DNA from: a virus
Taxonomy: Duplodnaviria; Heunggongvirae; Uroviricota; Caudoviricetes
DNA: 18,148 nt
IMG/VR virus record: IMGVR_UViG_2609459852_000016
Direction: 5' to 3' (one strand)
Shown here: positions 1,347 to 18,148 of the stretch, piece after piece
Layout of the letters: every line of letters begins with the position of its first letter
Position numbering within the stretch: the stretch's first letter is position 1
Notes under the pieces: model-generated
Databases searched by the model: none
What the model was told of the DNA's origin: nothing
What the model saw: the letters and a program-made list of their open reading frames with translations, nothing else
Made by a program: the position numbers and the translations under genes

Positions 1347-1373
1347 GTTGTCCAAGATCTGGGGCGCAGTTCA
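1347..1373 (+). repeat. Right terminal inverted repeat of the IS element
   Basis: Sequence gttgtccaagatctggggcgcagttca ends in CA; homology of the interrupted gene M breaks exactly here. Confidence 0.6.
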
Positions 1374-1586
1374 AAATGCGCGGACGCCACCGTGCCGTTC
1401 CAGAAAGGCTTTTAAAGATGGGTGTTCACATTTACGAACACGTATCGTCACGCTGTAAGTTGACAACTGGTTATTCAGTCCCGCCGCACGACGCTGTTCA
1501 TAACCATCGCCCAGCTTCACTGTCACCACTTTCGGCTCTGATACCACATTCATATCCGGGCGCACTTTCCAGTGAAACGTCTCCAT
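1371..1586 (-). pseudogene. M: Minor tail protein M (lambda gpM-like), truncated by the IS insertion
   Basis: Translation METFHWKVRPDMNVVSEPKVVTVKLGDGYEQRRAAGLNNQLSTYSVTIRVRK...HGGVRAF matches lambda gpM (MKTFRWKVKPGMDVASVPSVRKVRFGDGYSQRAPAGLNANLKTYSVTLSV...HGGWKSF, from memory). The reading frame ends in a TGA formed by the first three bases of the IS terminus. About 70 of roughly 109 codons remain. Confidence 0.7.
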
Positions 1587-4651: not shown

Positions 4652-5350
4652 AACGCACACCTCCGGAAATACCTTCCCCAAGATGCATCAGTTCTTCGTC
4701 CGTTCGCTCCGGTATCCCGTTCTCTTCCGGTAAAAGGCTGAAATCAGCCACCGCAGCATCACTGCTACCGGACACCATTCTCACGATCAATGCCTTCAGC
4801 GAGGCAAACTGCGCATCCATCCACACATCACTGAAGCTCTGCATCCGGAAATAATCGCCCCACTCACCAAGCTCAGTGGCCGACATTTCCGACAGCATCC
4901 GCCGCCAGTCTGCCCGCCGGAACTCCCGGGCAAGCCGCATGACAAACTGCATTTCCCGCGTCAGGACTTTTCCGGCGTCAGCACCTCATGCTCCAAATCC
5001 CCGGCATTCTCAATGACTCCCATACCGCTCAGCGACAGAACCATCTCCGCCCCCGCTCCCAGGGCATCATACGACCATGTTGTAATAACGGATGCGCAAA
5101 GCGTCTCAACATCCTGAGACTGTTCCGCATTCCACAGTGAGCGGGAAACCAGCCAGGCATTGATATCCATCCCCATCCGCAGAAAAGCAATCTGTCGTTC
5201 AGCCTCCGGCAGTTCTCCCTCTTCGGCATCAAACTTTGCCGTTCGCTGCTGAACAAACGCCAGATATTCAATTCTCTGCAGCCCGGACAGCTCACTGAGC
5301 ACCACGGACTGCTTTTCATAATTAAACGTGCCCTGTTTCAGAAACATCAT
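4623..5350 (-). CDS. Tail assembly chaperone GT fusion, made by programmed -1 frameshift near the end of G
   Basis: The T-frame ORF (4623..4952) lies in the -1 frame relative to G and overlaps its 3-prime end. Candidate slip site GGAAAAG (plus-strand 4967..4973, read on minus) is analogous to lambda GGGAAAG. The T frame is closed by a stop 13 nt upstream of the slip site. Confidence 0.6.
4961..5350 (-). CDS. G: Tail assembly chaperone G (lambda gpG-like)
   Basis: MMFLKQGTFNYEKQSVVLSELSGLQRIEYLA resembles lambda gpG (MFLKTESFEHNGVTVTLSELSALQRIEHLA). ATG at 5350 (or 5347) is preceded by GGTGGAG; the track start at 5389 is a TTG. Confidence 0.8.
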   Translation of the reverse strand: MMFLKQGTFNYEKQSVVLSELSGLQRIEYLAFVQQRTAKFDAEEGELPEAERQIAFLRMGMDINAWLVSRSLWNAEQSQDVETLCASVITTWSYDALGAGAEMVLSLSGMGVIENAGDLEHEVLTPEKS

Positions 5351-7742: not shown

Positions 7743-7785
7743 AACTGTCTCCGCACAGCCCCGTTCAGGGGCTGATTTCAGGTAC

Positions 7786-7804
7786 AAAAAAAGCCCTTAC
7801 GGGC
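7786..7804 (-). terminator. Putative intrinsic terminator/attenuator immediately after the capsid gene
   Basis: Minus strand: GCCC-GUAA-GGGC (GNRA loop) followed by UUUUUUU. A second 6-bp hairpin AGCCCC-UGAAC-GGGGCU lies at 7757..7773. Confidence 0.45.
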
Positions 7805-7828
7805 CATCAGAGTTGTTGTCTGCGACGT

Positions 7829-9787
7829 TTACGCCGTACATTTCACCAGACCGCGGTGATCAACTGGCGCGACACCGGCGTCAATACGCACTTTCGTTGT
7901 CACGCCATCCACACTGAAGCCCTCCATCTGATCAATATATGGCGTATCCACACCGTTGAGATAAGCCACTTCAATCGTATCGGAGCCTTTTGACGCAGCC
8001 AGGTAGAAGGTGGTCTGGCTGTTATCATCAAGACGAGGCTCTGCAATAACGGTCGCAAAATCTTTCACCGGGTTAATAATACCGGCGTTAATGTCAGCCC
8101 CCTTGACACTTGAGGAGCGAATGACCTGGTTAGCAACAGACTCCATCGCCGTCGGTACCAGTACGAACGCAGGACGAATATTCAGATGACGCTCCCCCTC
8201 TTTCTGAACGCGCATCAACTGGCGGGCTTTATCCAGCGATGCCACGTCCATTGCAGCGCTCTCCAGTACGTTTGCATGTTTCGCTTTATCGAACAGACTT
8301 ACATTATCTGTGGAGATTTTCGGGTTAGACGTCAGAATGGCATAAACCAGATCGGCAATAGTGGATTTCGCCGCACGGCCCAGTTTCATCGGGACATCGG
8401 TCAGCATATTCAGATCATCATTGATAATGGCCTGACGGGTGATACTGAACAGCTCGCCATAGGTCGCCAGTGCAATAGTGGCCTGTTTATCTCCGGTGGT
8501 GACGTATTTATATTCCGCCCCTTCACGCACCTGACGCAGAGCACTGAAGCCCCCCATACCCACACGATGGGCAATTTTAAAATCAGACAACTGACCTTTC
8601 CGCGTCCACTGTTCATAGGTTTCAGGGGCATCTTCCCAGCCCTGCAGAATGGCTTTGTTCGCAACATCCAGCAGAATATTACCGAAGTCAGACGTACTGT
8701 GTGTGAACGCCGCACCGACCATCTGCATCGGGTTATAACCGGAAACCCCAATACCCCGTTCAGTTAGTGACATACGGGCATATTCACGCAGGGTCATCCC
8801 GTTGTAGACATTATCACGTTCGGTTTTTTCAAATCCGGCACGCGCCATCAGCGCCTGGCGAATCCCGTCCCCCACAAAATTACCGTTACCGGCATAAATA
8901 TGAGCCGGGGTATTTTTATTGGATGGCGTGGACTCGCGCCCCATCTCGTTCAACAGCTTTTCACGGGCCTGCTCCAGCGAACATTCAGGATCGGCAAGAC
9001 ACTGGGCCTGCAGCGTCTGATAACGCCCACCAAACATGGCAAACAGATCATTAATACCGTTTACACGCGCTTTTTGCTCTGCCAGTACCTGCGCACGGAT
9101 ACTGTTTTCATCCACCACGGGTGCTGCTGCCTGCACTGGCGTCCGGGAGGCTGCAGGTTCATCATCCTGTACGCGTGGAGCACTGTTGCGTGGCGGAGTA
9201 ATCATGTTTCGAATGGATTCCGGCATCTTTTTAAATTCCTCTGTACGTTTTGACTGAATACATGCCATTGCCTTAACGGCTGGTGTCACCTGATCAGCAA
9301 ATCCCTGTGCCAGACATTCGGCACCGGACATCCAGGTCTCATCCGCCAGCATGGCAGCAATTTCATCGGTGGTTTTCCCGGTTTTCTGTGCATAAGCGGG
9401 TAACAGAACCGCCTCAACTTTATCGAGCAGGTCGGCATAGGTGCGCATGTCCTCCGCATCACCGCCCGTAAAGCCAAATGGTTTATGAATCATCATGAAG
9501 GAGTTTTCCGGCATAATGACCGGGTTTCCCACCATCGCAATGACCGACGCCATTGACGCCGCCACACCGTCGACATAAACGGTAATGGACGCACCATGTG
9601 TTTTCAGTGCATTAAAAATGGCGATGCCTTCAAAGACATCGCCACCCGGTGAATTAATATGGAGATTAATGTGGGTGATATCGCCCAGTGCATTCAGATC
9701 ACTGATAAACTGCTTCGCTGTAACACCCCAGAAACCAATCTCGTCATAAATATAAATATCCGCGTCACTCTGGTGACCTGCCTGCAT
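7829..9787 (-). CDS. Prohead protease (ClpP/S14-like) fused to major capsid protein (HK97-fold)
   Basis: N-terminal ClpP-like region (DIYIYDEIGFWG...INSPGGDV...GVAASMAS...MIHKPF), then an Ala/Pro-rich linker and a roughly 400-aa capsid-like C-terminal region. ATG at 9787 is 14 nt after the portal stop; the longer track ORF overlaps portal by about 250 nt. Confidence 0.75.
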   Translation of the reverse strand: MQAGHQSDADIYIYDEIGFWGVTAKQFISDLNALGDITHINLHINSPGGDVFEGIAIFNALKTHGASITVYVDGVAASMASVIAMVGNPVIMPENSFMMIHKPFGFTGGDAEDMRTYADLLDKVEAVLLPAYAQKTGKTTDEIAAMLADETWMSGAECLAQGFADQVTPAVKAMACIQSKRTEEFKKMPESIRNMITPPRNSAPRVQDDEPAASRTPVQAAAPVVDENSIRAQVLAEQKARVNGINDLFAMFGGRYQTLQAQCLADPECSLEQAREKLLNEMGRESTPSNKNTPAHIYAGNGNFVGDGIRQALMARAGFEKTERDNVYNGMTLREYARMSLTERGIGVSGYNPMQMVGAAFTHSTSDFGNILLDVANKAILQGWEDAPETYEQWTRKGQLSDFKIAHRVGMGGFSALRQVREGAEYKYVTTGDKQATIALATYGELFSITRQAIINDDLNMLTDVPMKLGRAAKSTIADLVYAILTSNPKISTDNVSLFDKAKHANVLESAAMDVASLDKARQLMRVQKEGERHLNIRPAFVLVPTAMESVANQVIRSSSVKGADINAGIINPVKDFATVIAEPRLDDNSQTTFYLAASKGSDTIEVAYLNGVDTPYIDQMEGFSVDGVTTKVRIDAGVAPVDHRGLVKCTA

Positions 9788-9800
9788 CCTGAACCAGGAA

Positions 9801-11309
9801 TTATTCTTCGGACTGGTCGTCGGTGTGCTGCGGCTCCTGTCGTTTCGTTGCGGCACTGCTGCCTCCTTTATCACTGGCCGGATCGGTATCAAATACCAGA
9901 TCCAGCTTGCGGTTTTCATCAATTTCGGCCTTGCGCCGACGTTTGACATCATCCGGATTACGACCACCTGCACGTACCCAGTCTGATTCTGTCGCCGCTC
10001 CACCACGAATCTGAATTTTCCAGGCCTCAGCCTCCTTAACAGGGTCAATCCACGGCATCACCGGTCCGGAATACACCGCGGTATACAGTGAAGAACGATC
10101 AAGATCGCGGGGTAGCCTGATAACACCGGATGCCACAGCCTGTTTCAGCCAGGCACGATACATCGGGCGGGTGACGGCACCAATAAACCAGTCCTGCAGG
10201 ATCAGGTAGCCATCAGTGGATTCAACCAGCTCCTGACGCTGGGCGCTGTAAGTGCCGTTATAGTTGCGTGCCGTACTGGAAAAACTCAGACGGCTGCCCG
10301 CCGCCACGGCACGCAACTGACCATTACGAAAAGTTTCAAGGTTAGGATTGGGACGATCCGACTTCACCATTCCGATTTCTTCGCCGGGTTTCAGATCGTC
10401 GTAAATAATGCCTGGCTGAATGGTAAGCTCGCGTTCATTCTCCTTGCTGCCATTACCATCCGGTTCATAGCTCTGCCCGTCGCCTTTCCGGATGTACATC
10501 CCCAGAGCAGCGGCGATCCTTGCTGCAGTCAGCTCAGAATCTTCATACTCTTTCAGGGCACTGAGGCGGATCAGCACACCGGACAACAAAGACGTCCCGC
10601 GCATCTGGTGCAGACGGCGAACAAATTTAAGATGCAGCATTCGCTCTGCATCCACTTCTTTGGTTTCCATCTGCCGCCCGGATACGGGACGGCTTTTATA
10701 CACCAGATATTTTTCGGGACGCCCCCAGTCATCAACAAACACGCCCTGATTCAGCCTGTTGCTCTCATCACTGGTCATGGGAATAAAGTCCGGCTCGAGC
10801 GCCTCCAGCCAGAAATGAACACCGGCAGAAGGCGTCAGGCTGTTTATGCGCCCGGAAACCATCTGGGCAAACACCTCACCATCGCGCAGCCAGGTACGCA
10901 GCATCAGACGTTCCAGCATCGGACGGGTAAACTGCCCGGTGACTTCCGGACTGACAGACCATTCACTCCATCGGGTGCGTATCTCCGCTGCCAGATCACG
11001 GGCAATGGCCCCATTGCGTAATACCGGATGTGGCTCGACAATAATCCCGTTTTTCCCCACCACCCGTTCTTCCAGCTTGTCAAATACACCAATAACCAGA
11101 TCGTGGTTGTTATCAAGGTAACGGGCCTGCTCACGTAACGACACGGCCCCGTACTGGCTTAACTGGTCGGCAGTTCGGTTTTCCCGCCGGGCTTTGTGTG
11201 TCCGTGTCGTTTTTACGGCCTCATAAGCCTGGATCACCGCACGGGAACGCAGCCTTGCCGCTTTCCATCCTGGTGAAAAAACGCCAATCACATCATCAAG
11301 AATTGCCAT
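9801..11309 (-). CDS. Portal protein (lambda gpB-like)
   Basis: About 500 aa, in the position between W and the protease/capsid gene. ATG at 11309 with GAGG SD, overlapping the W stop (TGATG). Confidence 0.8.
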   Translation of the reverse strand: MAILDDVIGVFSPGWKAARLRSRAVIQAYEAVKTTRTHKARRENRTADQLSQYGAVSLREQARYLDNNHDLVIGVFDKLEERVVGKNGIIVEPHPVLRNGAIARDLAAEIRTRWSEWSVSPEVTGQFTRPMLERLMLRTWLRDGEVFAQMVSGRINSLTPSAGVHFWLEALEPDFIPMTSDESNRLNQGVFVDDWGRPEKYLVYKSRPVSGRQMETKEVDAERMLHLKFVRRLHQMRGTSLLSGVLIRLSALKEYEDSELTAARIAAALGMYIRKGDGQSYEPDGNGSKENERELTIQPGIIYDDLKPGEEIGMVKSDRPNPNLETFRNGQLRAVAAGSRLSFSSTARNYNGTYSAQRQELVESTDGYLILQDWFIGAVTRPMYRAWLKQAVASGVIRLPRDLDRSSLYTAVYSGPVMPWIDPVKEAEAWKIQIRGGAATESDWVRAGGRNPDDVKRRRKAEIDENRKLDLVFDTDPASDKGGSSAATKRQEPQHTDDQSEE

Positions 11310-14300: not shown

Positions 14301-14666
14301 CGTGGCAGGGACCCCCACTGGGAGGACCCGACAGCCTGACAACCGTGACGAGCATCTGAAACAGAGCTTTACATAATGGCATGGGGATAATTCAGAAGGA
14401 CATCACAGCATGCCCACACAAATTAGTGTGAGTGTCCTGTTTCTTACTACGCGCAGGACTGACGAGCATGAGGGGAAAATACGCGAACCGAAATGCCTTA
14501 TCTTCAGAAATGCAGCCGGCATCCGAACTGGACGATATTGTAAATTCACCTAAATACGAGGCATTGCTGTAGTTGAATTGCAGTACTGTATTAGCCTTAC
14601 AGTGACAGAATACGATATTGACTCTGTCACTTGTGAAATGGTCAGAATGGTTAGCAGTTATGGTGA

Positions 14667-14873
14667 TCAGTCAACCACCAGGGAATAATCCTTCGTATTC
14701 TTATCGTGCTTTACTAACGCGGCCTCAATTGCCCTGAATGCTTCCAGAGATACTTGATGTTCTATACATGCAATTACAACATCCGGGTAACCCATCGAAA
14801 TGGTGCTATTAAGCATAGTTTTTACACGAACCTGCTCCTGGGAGGGGGCATCAGTGTATTGATCTTTATGCAT
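14667..14873 (-). CDS. Hypothetical small protein (68 aa), cargo gene of unknown function
   Basis: ATG at 14873 with GGAG 9 nt upstream; balanced amino-acid composition; no motif recognised. Confidence 0.5.
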
Positions 14874-15168
14874 TTTGTCGCTCCATTCGTTTGCTCTTCA
14901 CTTGCGGCTAAAAATATAACGTCAAATCACTCAGCATGAAAGAGTGAAAGTTTCAGCGCGTTTCCCTCACATAATCTGTCGTTTGTATTCTCTTCAGGCA
15001 TACCGGAAAGACTAGGTATTGTCACACAACCAATACCATCGACAATCGAGATTTATATCTATTCGGTAATGTTTAAATATAACAAAACCCCGTAAAAACG
15101 AGGTTTATGGGTAATTTGTATTGTTGAATAGCATCTGATGAGAAATTGATGCTAATACTATAAACATG

Positions 15169-15342
15169 CTAGATTAAATCAATCTTGATATCATAGCTTT
15201 CAAGACCAGTCATTTTTTCCCGTGCAGTAAACTGGATACTGGTAACTTCTTTCCCGGTCTTTTTCTTAAGCTCAATGATTTTTTTTGTTATATATTCAGA
15301 AATATCTGCTTCTGTTTTTGTTTTTAACTCTTCAATGTTCAT
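15169..15342 (-). CDS. gnsB: GnsA/GnsB-family protein
   Basis: MNIEELKTKTEADISEYITKKIIELKKKTGKEVTSIQFTAREKMTGLESYDIKIDLI closely resembles E. coli GnsB (from memory). ATG at 15342 with AGAGGA SD. Confidence 0.75.
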   Translation of the reverse strand: MNIEELKTKTEADISEYITKKIIELKKKTGKEVTSIQFTAREKMTGLESYDIKIDLI

Positions 15343-15514
15343 CATTTCCTCTTTTAGTCTGTTATGACTGTCCTGGTACACAGTAGTGTCAATTATATGG
15401 AGCAAACGTATAAAAGATAAGATGAAACATCGCAATAATCAACATACGACGGTCTAAATTTCACACAAACAGATAAAGATGATTATCATTTATTATCAAT
15501 GCATTAGAATCAAA

Positions 15515-15745
15515 TCAATTCAAGAGTCTCATTGCTGCTTCCAGAATTTCTTCTGAAGTTACATGTCGATCCGCTGCTACATAAATGACTTTATGATCTC
15601 CGGTCAGAGATGGAAACCCTGCAGCCATTACAGTGAGGTGTGTTGTTTCGCCATTTGGATATTCACGCATGATGGTGTTAACTCCGGTCATCACTGGCAC
15701 TACCATTGCTGGTTCAGAGTTAAAAAAAACTATTATTTTTTTCAT
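15515..15745 (-). CDS. Hypothetical 76-aa protein (possibly YmcE/YnfN-like by position)
   Basis: ATG at 15745; the longer track ORF starts with GTG inside the upstream terminator hairpin. It sits between the gnsB-like and cspI-like genes. Confidence 0.5.
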   Translation of the reverse strand: MKKIIVFFNSEPAMVVPVMTGVNTIMREYPNGETTHLTVMAAGFPSLTGDHKVIYVAADRHVTSEEILEAAMRLLN

Positions 15746-15789
15746 AATGTTACCGTAATATGTGAGTATCCATCGACTAGACACTAAGC

Positions 15790-15809
15790 AAAAAAGCTCC
15801 CGAAGGAGC
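15790..15809 (-). terminator. Intrinsic terminator downstream of cspI
   Basis: Minus strand: GCUCC-UUCG-GGAGC followed by UUUUUU. Confidence 0.6.
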
Positions 15810-16016
15810 CTTCATTTTCACTTTCTTAAATCTAACGACAGATGGCTAACATTTAAGTATTGTGAAATATTATCAAATGTAATCATCATTGATTTACAAA
15901 AGATACATTTTGCCCCGAAAGGATTTCTGTCAGAAACATCAAAAGATGATGTTCTATACTGAGAACCATGGCAACACGGGCATCTAAAGTGAATATGGTT
16001 TGTAATATTTTCTACC

Positions 16017-16229
16017 TCAAAGTGCCACTACATGAACAGCTGCAGGGCCTTTAGGTCCGTTCTCAATACCAAATTCGACTTCCTGATTCTCAGTTAACGT
16101 TTTGAAATCGTTGCTCTGAATAGCTGAGAAATGCACAAACACATCTTTGCTACCATCTTTCGGCGTGATGAAACCAAAACCTTTTTCAGGGTTAAACCAT
16201 TTCACTAAACCAGTCATTTTGTTAGACAT
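16017..16229 (-). CDS. cspI: CspA-family cold-shock protein (CspI-like)
   Basis: [38 protein letters not shown]...: cold-shock domain with RNP motifs, near-identical to E. coli CspI as I recall it. AAGGTAATA SD-like leader. Confidence 0.9.
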
Positions 16230-16592
16230 CATTATTACCTTTTGAAGAAGTTAGCCCTTGGGCAGAATGGTCCGAAAAAAAATATCAGAGAGAAAAACCA
16301 ACAAGGAAATCTCAAGAGGTACAAATAATAAAATTATAACAATGACTGCTTCAGATAATTTTGTAACAAACCAGAACACCATTAACGCATGATTAACCAA
16401 CCATAGCAAGGATTACTTTTGTAAAGAAAAACACACGAATGAAACAATAGCTTTATTTATTAATAAAACGTGTCATTCTGTCTAATGACCTTTTATCTTA
16501 CCCTTAAGATTTCAAGGATTTTGACTCATGGAAGAGTCCTTTTTATTTAAATTTCACATTCAGCGCTAAAAATAATCCGATTTAATATTAAT
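16230..16592 (-). promoter_or_regulatory. AT-rich promoter and long 5-prime leader region upstream of cspI
   Basis: About 360 bp without ORFs between the Rz stop and cspI start. Contains a TATAAT on the minus strand (plus-strand 16333..16338). Cold-shock genes typically have long structured leaders. Exact promoter not resolved. Confidence 0.3.
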
Positions 16593-17616
<1,024 letters not shown>

Positions 17617-17620
<4 letters not shown>

Positions 17621-17928
17621 AGATATTTATGATGAGGACGCTCGTGCTTATTGGCAGGATTTTCAATCTTAAAGGAGTACTGATGCTGCAGATAAGACTC
17701 AACTTTTTCTGACAATTTTTCTGCTACTTCCAGGAAGACTTGCCGGACGCTCATTCTGGCTGCTGCCTCATAAAACTCCAGCGCAGCTCCTTCAACACGG
17801 TCCATGGCGACATCCAGGCCAAAAATTTCACTGTCAAAGCGTTCTTTGTCCTGTAAGGCTACAGTTACCGTAACTTTATTCTCAAAATTACGGACTCCTT
17901 TCACAACCAGTTCATAGTCTTGAGTCAT
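17617..17928 (-). CDS. ydfR: YdfR-like protein (DUF1327) between holin and endolysin
   Basis: 103 aa; matches E. coli Qin prophage YdfR as I recall it; same position as in Qin. Confidence 0.75.
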
Positions 17929-17932
17929 TGGA

Positions 17933-18148
17933 TTACTCTCCTCTCGCAGCCTTACGCCTGTCTTCTTTAATCTTGAAATAAAGATTTGTCAGATACGTCA
18001 GCATGCCAAATACCAGACTACCCAATACACCTATTGCCGCCCACTGTGAGGGCGTGACTTTATCGAGCAACTGTAAAAACCAGTAGCCAGCACTGCCTGC
18101 AGAGGTGCTGTAGGCGATGCCCGTTGTTAACTTATCCATGGATTTCAT
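17933..18148 (-). CDS. S: Phage-21-type pinholin (S21-like) with dual-start motif
   Basis: [71 protein letters not shown]: 71 aa, two transmembrane domains, Met1 and Met4 starts as in S21 antiholin/holin. The start codon is the last three bases of the window. Confidence 0.9.

Follow-up and report, generated by a model that had tools for sequence, protein, structure and literature searches.

How many proteins does a phage obtain from a single reading frame that carries the protease, the scaffold and the shell protein of its head, and where does such a gene begin? The question is raised by a locus on the minus strand of the window (the whole stretch of 18,148 nucleotides that was analysed), where an uninterrupted open reading frame extends from an ATG at position 9787 to a stop codon at 7829-7831 and encodes 652 amino acids, the same frame remaining open 5′ of this ATG as far as 10048. 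The initial annotation had interpreted it as a ClpP/S14-like prohead protease fused to the major capsid protein, and the domain search that it had proposed as a check supported both parts: Pfam recognises CLP_protease (PF00574, E 4.6e-36) at residues 23-168 and Phage_capsid_4 (PF25209, E 1.4e-54) at residues 357-649 of the 652-residue form. The protein is also described by the curated model NF045540 (scaf_prot_MCP1, [quoted passage not shown]), which reaches 986 bits, its cutoff being 475, and aligns residues 9-651 with profile positions 2-651 of 652; phrog_133 is matched over the full length. The gene is an ordinary member of NF045540, and the fusion is already known, not new. The locus is very probably the head gene of a lambdoid E. 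coli prophage of the Gifsy-2/mEp460 type, encoding a 675-residue polyprotein in which a protease, a hinge, a helical scaffold-like module and a capsid domain follow one another (Table 1); domain content, intact frame, conservation of the catalytic residues, family membership and synteny are direct observations.

Table 1. Features of the fusion gene and of its surroundings in the window; residue numbers refer to the 675-residue form.
Feature	Position	Strand	Basis or remark
Fused protease-scaffold-major capsid gene	7829-9856	minus	675 aa, 73.5 kDa; stop 7829-7831; ORF, PGAP, NF045540, phrog_133
Shine-Dalgarno sequence AAGGAGG	9862-9868	minus	5 nt ahead of the GTG start, 9856-9854
ATG of the initial annotation and of GenBank mEp460 (Met24)	9785-9787	minus	Role as start improbable
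ClpP-like serine protease domain, residues ~46-191	9284-9721	minus	PF00574, NF045542, ClpP structures
Catalytic Ser101 codon, motif AASMAS	9554-9556	minus	Pairs with ClpP active-site motif GxAASM
Catalytic His124 codon, motif MIHKP	9485-9487	minus	Pairs with MIHQP of ClpP
Glu173 codon, at the position of the third catalytic residue (Asp) of ClpP	9338-9340	minus	Alignment of “adETW” with “erDNW”
Internal Shine-Dalgarno-like GAGGA (core AGGA)	9237-9241	minus	10 nt before the internal ATG; core at 9237-9240
Internal in-frame ATG, Met211 followed by Pro212	9224-9226	minus	Candidate start of a nested 465-aa (50.7 kDa) protein
Variable Pro/Ala/Val-rich hinge, residues 219-249	9110-9202	minus	Composition; length variation
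Conserved helical module, residues 250-311, scaffold/delta-domain candidate	8924-9109	minus	Conservation, helices, lambda gpC alignment
Major capsid protein domain, residues ~320-675	7832-8899	minus	PF25209, PF10124, profile matches to solved capsids
Portal protein gene, lambda family	9801-11309	minus	PF05136, 7.1e-82; PGAP coordinates
Terminator-like hairpin and T-run	7782-7805	minus	Downstream of the fusion gene, before the cement gene
Capsid cement/decoration protein gene, 107 aa	7419-7742	minus	PF09956 Phage_cement_2, 1.4e-20; PGAP coordinates

The DNA is 100% identical to prophage genes of E. coli, which PGAP names as NF045540, and about 99% identical to that of the viable phages mEp460, cdtI, phi458 and Ayreon; of 5426 complete E. 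coli genomes, 2136 carry the gene, 2017 of them over its full length. A scan of viral contigs returned near-identical E. coli prophage copies only and hence was not used for conservation; the diverse relatives come from a scan of genome contigs, which gave 80 species-level loci from different bacteria, residue conservation being scored in 79 relatives. At about 75 of the 80 loci the gene is kept as a single ORF (47-99% identity), as it is in 74 phage genomes, plaque-forming phages among them. A frameshift or stop codon hidden between the two halves was looked for and is absent; in the 80 loci no stop separates the domains, save for a few N-terminally truncated matches. These comparative data refute an artefactual origin, i.e., that separate protease and capsid genes were joined by sequencing error or by mutation in a defective prophage. 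In the window prophage a tail gene is indeed interrupted by an IS3 element, and the databases do hold clearly artefactual longer fusions (portal, protease and capsid, 1158-1159 aa) arising from scattered indels; however, the number of species, phages and E. coli genomes that share the single frame, and the curated model that spans its whole length, leave this explanation with practically no probability. Programmed frameshifting from the portal into the protease-capsid frame was also considered, because the fusion frame reaches back into the portal gene by 64 codons without a stop and entries of 1158-1159 residues are many; it was rejected, since the junctions are scattered over the overlap and the entries are singletons, some of them with further frameshifts.

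The stop codon at 7829 given by the initial annotation stands, but its start at 9787 probably has to be moved: the gene limits are most likely 7829-9856, with translation beginning at a GTG 69 nt 5′ of that ATG. A start at ATG 9787, giving the 652-residue protein, is the choice of several GenBank phage records, mEp460 and cdtI among them, and it agrees with the NF045540 match, which begins near residue 9 of the shorter form; it is nonetheless unlikely. No usable Shine-Dalgarno sequence was found upstream of this ATG, while a strong one, AAGGAGG, precedes the GTG by 5 nt; the latter arrangement is kept in mEp213 and 1720a-02, and F10 has GGAGG with an ATG at the equivalent place. Conservation points the same way, as methionine occupies the Met24 position in 45 of the 79 relatives and isoleucine or leucine in the other 34, and Gifsy-2, Fels-1 and F10 lack the equivalent of ATG 9787. 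Moreover, a SW[FY] motif encoded 5′ of this ATG and 3′ of the portal stop codon, and thus not portal-coding, persists in relatives of as little as 57% identity, and when stand-alone proteases from Vibrio and Gordonia phages are aligned by tblastn, the alignments start with the first residue of the long form. PGAP also chooses the GTG, at the same coordinates in the 100% identical DNA of E. coli L725.

The protease domain matches NF045542 (“head maturation protease, ClpP-related”, 1.3e-64) and, in a sequence-profile comparison, solved ClpP structures (E 3e-22). Ser101, His124 and Glu173 are each invariant in 79 of 79 relatives, and the alignment with ClpP suggests that Glu173 is the third member of the triad. 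Downstream of this domain, a low-complexity Ala/Pro/Gln linker had been noted and regarded as a possible scaffold or delta domain; the low-complexity stretch indeed lies between the two domains, but the scaffold role suits it less well. The stretch is a hinge with little conservation, 9-60 aa long among relatives, and the helical module that follows, which is conserved across relatives, is the better scaffold candidate. In the AlphaFold models no region other than this module reached moderate confidence; three helices were predicted in it (pLDDT 60-80). A weak alignment also links the module to the Nu3 part of lambda gpC, at the C-terminus of the latter.

In the capsid domain, besides PF25209, the Mu-like gpT family PF10124 is matched at 3.7e-8. 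A family profile of 58 sequences, compared with PDB sequences, retrieved the solved capsid proteins 8rkc/8rkx (6e-10) and 9jod (4e-8), and phmmer with the single C-terminal sequence gave a marginal capsid match (6.6e-4). AlphaFold2 models had a mean pLDDT of 36.8 for the C-terminal 475 aa and of 35.6 for the full 675 aa; they are of low confidence because the alignments, of 23 sequences with 75-100% identity, taken from the best 120 homologues listed (all at least 75% identical), are too shallow. Because of these mean values of 36-37, the fold was assigned from sequence and profile homology, which points to a capsid protein of the Mu gpT type within the HK97-fold family. The N-terminal boundary of the domain is a variable hinge at residues 312-319, the site of 8-9 extra residues in the comparison with Gifsy-2. 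By analogy, cleavage near residue 318, a site bracketed by this hinge, would give the mature capsid protein a mass of about 39 kDa.

Does the gene also give a second, shorter protein? At the sequence level, an in-frame internal ribosome-binding site with a start codon is present 3′ of the protease domain; its Shine-Dalgarno element has a core of 4-5 nt, and the spacer, about 10 nt, is rather long. The ATG-CCN that encodes Met211-Pro212 occurs in 79 of 79 relatives, and so does the AGGA core, though the residues that it encodes change (E-E, Q-E, K-D, E-D, G-D). In addition, hhalign places Met211 opposite Met309 of lambda gpC, which has AGGAGG 4 nt upstream. The conserved AGGA and the ATG at 9226 make it somewhat probable that a nested, protease-less scaffold-capsid protein of 465 aa is produced, as in lambda C/Nu3.

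The alternative is that the 675-residue polyprotein is the only product, each subunit having its own protease and scaffold, and that the AGGA…ATG-CCN arrangement reflects a constraint on protein or RNA. It has some arguments on its side: according to a rough volume estimate, about 415 copies of the internal part of about 37 kDa could fit inside a T=7 procapsid; the core is short and the spacer long; Met211-Pro212 is invariant also as residues, and may serve protein structure or recognition instead; and the published descriptions found, PMC8508860 among them and Effantin et al. 2010 outside their number, mention no second product. It accounts less well for the codon that precedes GA in the core. 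The residue there varies (E, K, Q), and yet 77 of 77 sequences have G in the third position of this NAG codon, while 14 control columns have G at frequencies of 0.18-0.76; the lineage-corrected chance of the pattern is 7.6e-4 to 7e-12. The 77 include AT-rich Pasteurellaceae, in which G closes about 20% of comparable codons, and two sequences retain AGGA through a one-base shift, with other amino acids (Leu-Gly-Asp). A third base that is fixed while the residue varies suggests selection on the nucleotides and not on the protein; a polyprotein as the only product is thus possible but doubtful, and production of the nested protein is the reading preferred here.

The fusion gene lies in a conserved neighbourhood. 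The order terminase, portal, fusion gene, cement protein and gpZ/U/V-type tail genes is that of Gifsy-2; the fusion gene also follows the portal and precedes the cement gene in F10, mEp213 and Fels-1, the cement gene being at the same position in Gifsy-2, F10 and mEp213. The last 56 nt of the portal gene overlap the start of the fusion gene, and at the place of the hairpin downstream a rho-independent terminator is annotated in mEp460 and mEp213. The head module had been proposed to be mosaic relative to the lambda-like tail genes, and this applies in part: only the capsid domain, of the Mu gpT type, and the Phage_cement_2 protein differ in kind from lambda E and D. The families of the large terminase (GpA) and of the portal are those of lambda, and the protease-scaffold part is weakly colinear with gpC. 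Because of the IS3 element in its tail gene, the prophage of this strain may never use the fusion gene for infectious particles.

Gifsy-2 is a published case of a fused protease-capsid product, cited as such in PMC12315714. The product of its “tripartite capsid gene” (STM1034.3n, YP_001700678) has 70% protein identity over residues 18-674 and likewise runs from a ClpP protease through a middle domain to a capsid domain; the neighbours are also alike, with a lambda-type terminase and portal upstream and cement and gpZ/U/V-type genes downstream. The differences lie in the host (Salmonella), in a longer N-terminal extension and in the extra hinge residues before the capsid domain. The Gifsy-2 gene is said to have been examined structurally by Effantin et al. 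in 2010; their work, on Gifsy-2 and not on the E. coli version, reportedly described a T=7 capsid with gpD-like trimers, in which the protease and scaffold parts are removed by proteolysis and the mature capsid protein forms the shell.

The gp5 proteins of Pseudomonas phages MD8 and F10 follow the same three-part plan at 56.5% identity; they are more distant, come from a GC-rich host, start at an ATG with GGAGG, and have CAG GAG as internal motif where the window gene has GAG GAA. For MD8 gp5, a single gene for protease, scaffold and major capsid protein was described, with HHpred matches to lambda C (99.9% for gpC), HK97 and the Mu major capsid protein (PMC8508860). The model NF045541 (scaf_prot_MCP2) scores 402 bits over residues 197-649, under its cutoff of 525, and leaves the protease part unmatched; it and the Paracoccus prophages, in which a protease is likewise fused to a capsid protein of the Mu gpT type (ClpP and gpT fusions of about 700 aa; PMC6536676), represent a sister family and not that of the window gene.

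Lambda has C/Nu3, E and D in the same order after a portal of the same family, and hhalign finds the protease-scaffold part of the window protein colinear with gpC residues 123-396 over 233 columns, a weak match (probability 36%, E 3.8e-4). The in-frame start of nu3 after the lambda protease domain would have its counterpart in the internal ATG described above. However, lambda encodes E by a gene apart, and the protein falls in another Pfam family, whereas in the window gene scaffold and capsid protein form one polypeptide chain; gpC is typed S49 and the window protease S14/ClpP, and lambda D, unlike the window cement protein, is not a Phage_cement_2 protein. HK97 gp5 offers a functional analogy, as its scaffold forms the N-terminal part of the capsid protein, from which the phage protease removes it inside the procapsid; the HK97 protease, gp4, is encoded by a separate gene and belongs to the herpesvirus-like S78 family, whereas that of the window is fused and ClpP-like. 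The proposed nested product would have an N-terminal part of 107 aa, against the 102 aa of the HK97 delta domain (PMC8508860), the likeness being one of size and predicted helical character.

From the precedents of Gifsy-2 and of HK97/lambda, an order of assembly and cleavage can be proposed. A procapsid would first form on the lambda-type portal from the capsid domains, enclosing the scaffold and the protease; the latter would then cut away, by self-processing, all that is N-terminal of about residue 318, leaving the mature capsid protein. DNA packaging and expansion would follow, after which the shell would be bound by the cement protein encoded just downstream. If the internal start is used, the nested product would be a precursor resembling HK97 gp5, with a delta-like N-terminal part, and the full-length form a minority “protease carrier” that co-assembles via its capsid domain; only a minority of subunits would have a protease. 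The ratio of protease to capsid protein would be set by translation initiation, the lambda C/Nu3 logic being carried through the capsid protein.

As a discovery the fusion is of little weight, being a curated, named family and already in print for Pseudomonas and Paracoccus phages. Many GenBank records of phages, however, label the gene just “protease”, “Nu3” or “scaffold” and give it what is probably a wrong start codon, and capsid genes therefore go unrecognised; in an automated survey the major capsid protein of Gifsy-2 was not found (PMC8814770). The fusion gene is present in about 37% of complete E. coli genomes, more than one in three, and it offers a useful case from nature in which protease, scaffold and shell are combined in one reading frame; the internal start, if true, would explain how one protease per capsid subunit is avoided.

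On the minus strand, 652 uninterrupted sense codons run from the ATG at 9787 to the stop at 7829-7831, and the same frame is open upstream as far as 10048. The initial annotation had read this ORF as a ClpP-like protease fused to the major capsid protein; a Pfam search placed a CLP_protease domain within its first 200 residues (residues 23-168 of the 652-aa form, 4.6e-36) and a Phage_capsid_4 domain in its C-terminal half (residues 357-649, 1.4e-54), with an additional, weaker match to Mu-like gpT, and no hidden frameshift or stop was found between the two parts. Given these two domains in one unbroken frame, the fusion was correctly and well read. It is also an ordinary, already known feature, belonging to a curated family and already published: the protein matches over its full length both NF045540 of NCBIfam (986 bits, curated cutoff 475) and phrog_133 of PHROGs.

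The stop and the frame of the roughly 650-aa ORF proposed at 7829-9787 stand, while its start is more likely the GTG at 9856, which is the one chosen by PGAP and lies 5 nt 3′ of AAGGAGG. No ribosome-binding site precedes the ATG at 9787; of 79 relatives, just 45 have Met at this codon, and the ATG has no counterpart in Gifsy-2, Fels-1 and F10; furthermore, a SW[FY] motif is conserved upstream of it, downstream of the portal stop, and the Shine-Dalgarno plus GTG arrangement is kept also in mEp213 and 1720a-02. Its product is thus most likely a 675-aa protein of 73.5 kDa, in which the former first residue is Met24.

Coordinates of the fusion gene, its parts and other features (residues refer to the 675-aa form)
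Feature	Position	Strand	Remarks
Fusion gene, most likely extent	7829-9856	-	shares 56 nt with the 3′ end of the portal gene
Upstream open frame	9856-10048	-	64 codons before the start; overlaps portal 3′ end
Conserved segment	after the protease, up to invariant Met211-Pro212	-	relatives' alignment
Pro/Ala/Val-rich hinge	residues 219-249	-	9-60 residues long in relatives
Conserved module	residues 250-311	-	conservation; three helices predicted
Second hinge, short, variable	residues 312-319	-	variability among relatives
Capsid domain	~residue 320 to C-terminal end	-	profile homology
Terminator-like hairpin	7782-7805	-	GGCCCGTAAGGGCT + T-run, between fusion gene stop and cement-protein gene
PF13856 ('Gifsy-2') protein, 91 aa	7151-7426	-	after the cement protein
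Lysis cassette plus cold-shock/small-protein genes	~14600-18148	-	right end; cold-shock and small-protein genes between lysis and packaging
IS3-family element	1-1346 (orfA 1-507, orfB 483-1346)	+	inserted in gpM-like tail gene
Tail gene remnant	1371-1586	-	71 codons

Two other readings of the locus were rejected. At least 10 database "proteins" of 1158-1159 aa join portal, protease and capsid, as programmed frameshifting from the portal into the fusion gene would do; all are singletons and their junctions are scattered across the overlap, so these entries are indel artefacts. That two genes had been artefactually fused is ruled out by comparative data: with each species represented by a single genome, the single-ORF form was present in about 75 of the 80 loci scanned, which come from Enterobacterales, Pasteurellaceae, Pseudomonas and Shewanella.

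The protease domain aligns in profile searches with solved ClpP structures (E 3e-22), its AASM serine and MIHxP histidine motifs being in register with ClpP. Ser101, His124 and Glu173 are invariant in all 79 relatives; Glu173 (codon 9338-9340) occupies the position of the catalytic Asp of ClpP, and the residue preceding it varies (D/E/A/S), which suggests a family with a Ser-His-Glu arrangement. In the middle region, the module at residues 250-311 is the only part of the protein modelled by AlphaFold with moderate confidence. A C-terminal profile of 58 sequences matches solved capsid proteins of the Mu gpT type (8rkc/8rkx, 6e-10; 9jod, 4e-8).

Several E. coli strains carry chromosomal DNA 100% identical to the 2.7-kb region, in which PGAP gives the gene the NF045540 name, ClpP-like prohead protease/major capsid protein fusion protein. 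Of 5426 complete E. coli genomes, 2136 have the gene (nearly full-length in 2017). Phages mEp460, cdtI, phi458, Ayreon, Tritos and HannyBb show ~99% identity. Full-length protein relatives occur in 74 phage genomes, including Stx-converting phages (~76%), mEp213/LLS (73%), Fels-1 (72%), Gifsy-2 (70%), one Providencia phage (63%) and ~30 phages of Pseudomonas, F10 and MD8 among them (56-57%); a database search returned 3998 relatives at E ≤ 1e-20, with thousands of members in single clusters. Effantin et al. reportedly described T=7 capsids for Gifsy-2, the shell density being modelled with the HK97 capsid protein and lambda gpD. The fused gene of Gifsy-2 is cited as a published case in PMC12315714. 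In Pseudomonas phage MD8, a single gene encodes protease, scaffold and capsid protein; its product gp5, 56.5% identical to the protein described here, has HHpred matches to the lambda protease/scaffold protein, HK97 and the Mu capsid protein (PMC8508860). Paracoccus prophages have ClpP and gpT fusions of ~700 aa (PMC6536676).

The gene module comprises, in an order identical to that of Gifsy-2, a DUF1441 small-terminase candidate, a GpA-type large terminase, a small gene at the W position, a lambda-family portal, the fusion gene, the hairpin, a Phage_cement_2 protein, the PF13856 protein, gpZ, gpU, a gpV-type tail tube, G/T and the tape measure. Since this order is shared and both terminase and portal are lambda-family, the description of the head module as mosaic relative to the lambda-like tail genes holds for the capsid and decoration proteins only. 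The hairpin, at whose equivalent place a rho-independent terminator is annotated in mEp460 and mEp213, may reduce read-through into the genes downstream. The PF13856 protein is described by Pfam as an ATP-binding sugar transporter and named "DNA breaking-rejoining protein" by PGAP; given the head-tail joining position of its gene, both names look wrong. At the right end, the identical region of E. coli L725 carries Qin-prophage-style RefSeq names (essD, ydfR, rrrQ, rzpQ, cspI, ymcF, ynfN, gnsB).

The tail gene interrupted by the IS3 element adjoins the tape-measure gene, just downstream. E. coli EC93 has the identical junction, with the tail gene halves annotated by PGAP as pseudogenes and gpJ as frameshifted; therefore this prophage copy is probably defective, its fusion gene being intact.

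An AGGA core is found at a fixed distance of ~10 nt 5′ of the invariant Met211 ATG in all 79 relatives. The codon giving its first two bases is NAG in 77 of 77 sequences, with the amino acid varying among Glu, Lys and Gln, and the remaining two retain AGGA through a one-base shift, with different amino acids. At 14 control columns, the others in which Glu, Lys and Gln make up at least 95%, G accounts for a fraction of 0.18-0.76, and in the Pasteurellaceae members G-ending codons make up only about 20%; with each sequence cluster counted as one independent lineage, the probability of the third-base pattern is 7.6e-4 (9 clusters, 70% identity) or 7e-12 (31 clusters, 80%). The pattern looks like a conserved internal Shine-Dalgarno. 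Met211-Pro212 could instead be invariant for a role of the protein itself, and the AGGA-to-ATG spacer is somewhat long for a start. In lambda, Nu3 is described as the C-terminal third of C. The alignment of the protease-scaffold part to residues 123-396 of lambda gpC is colinear, though weak (probability 36% and E 3.8e-4 in hhalign), and places gpC Met309 opposite Met211; an AGGAGG lies 4 nt upstream of Met309 (lambda 5324-5344), and the RefSeq nu3 start is an earlier ATG, at gpC residue 239, with no obvious Shine-Dalgarno. From the conserved AGGA and ATG and this lambda counterpart, we propose that internal initiation at Met211 may yield a second product from the same frame, a 465-aa (50.7 kDa) scaffold-capsid protein. 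The full-length protein would then be the protease carrier, and the 465-aa product, with a 107-aa N-terminal part preceding the predicted mature capsid protein (residues 318-675, ~39 kDa), would be a scaffold-capsid precursor resembling that of HK97 gp5.
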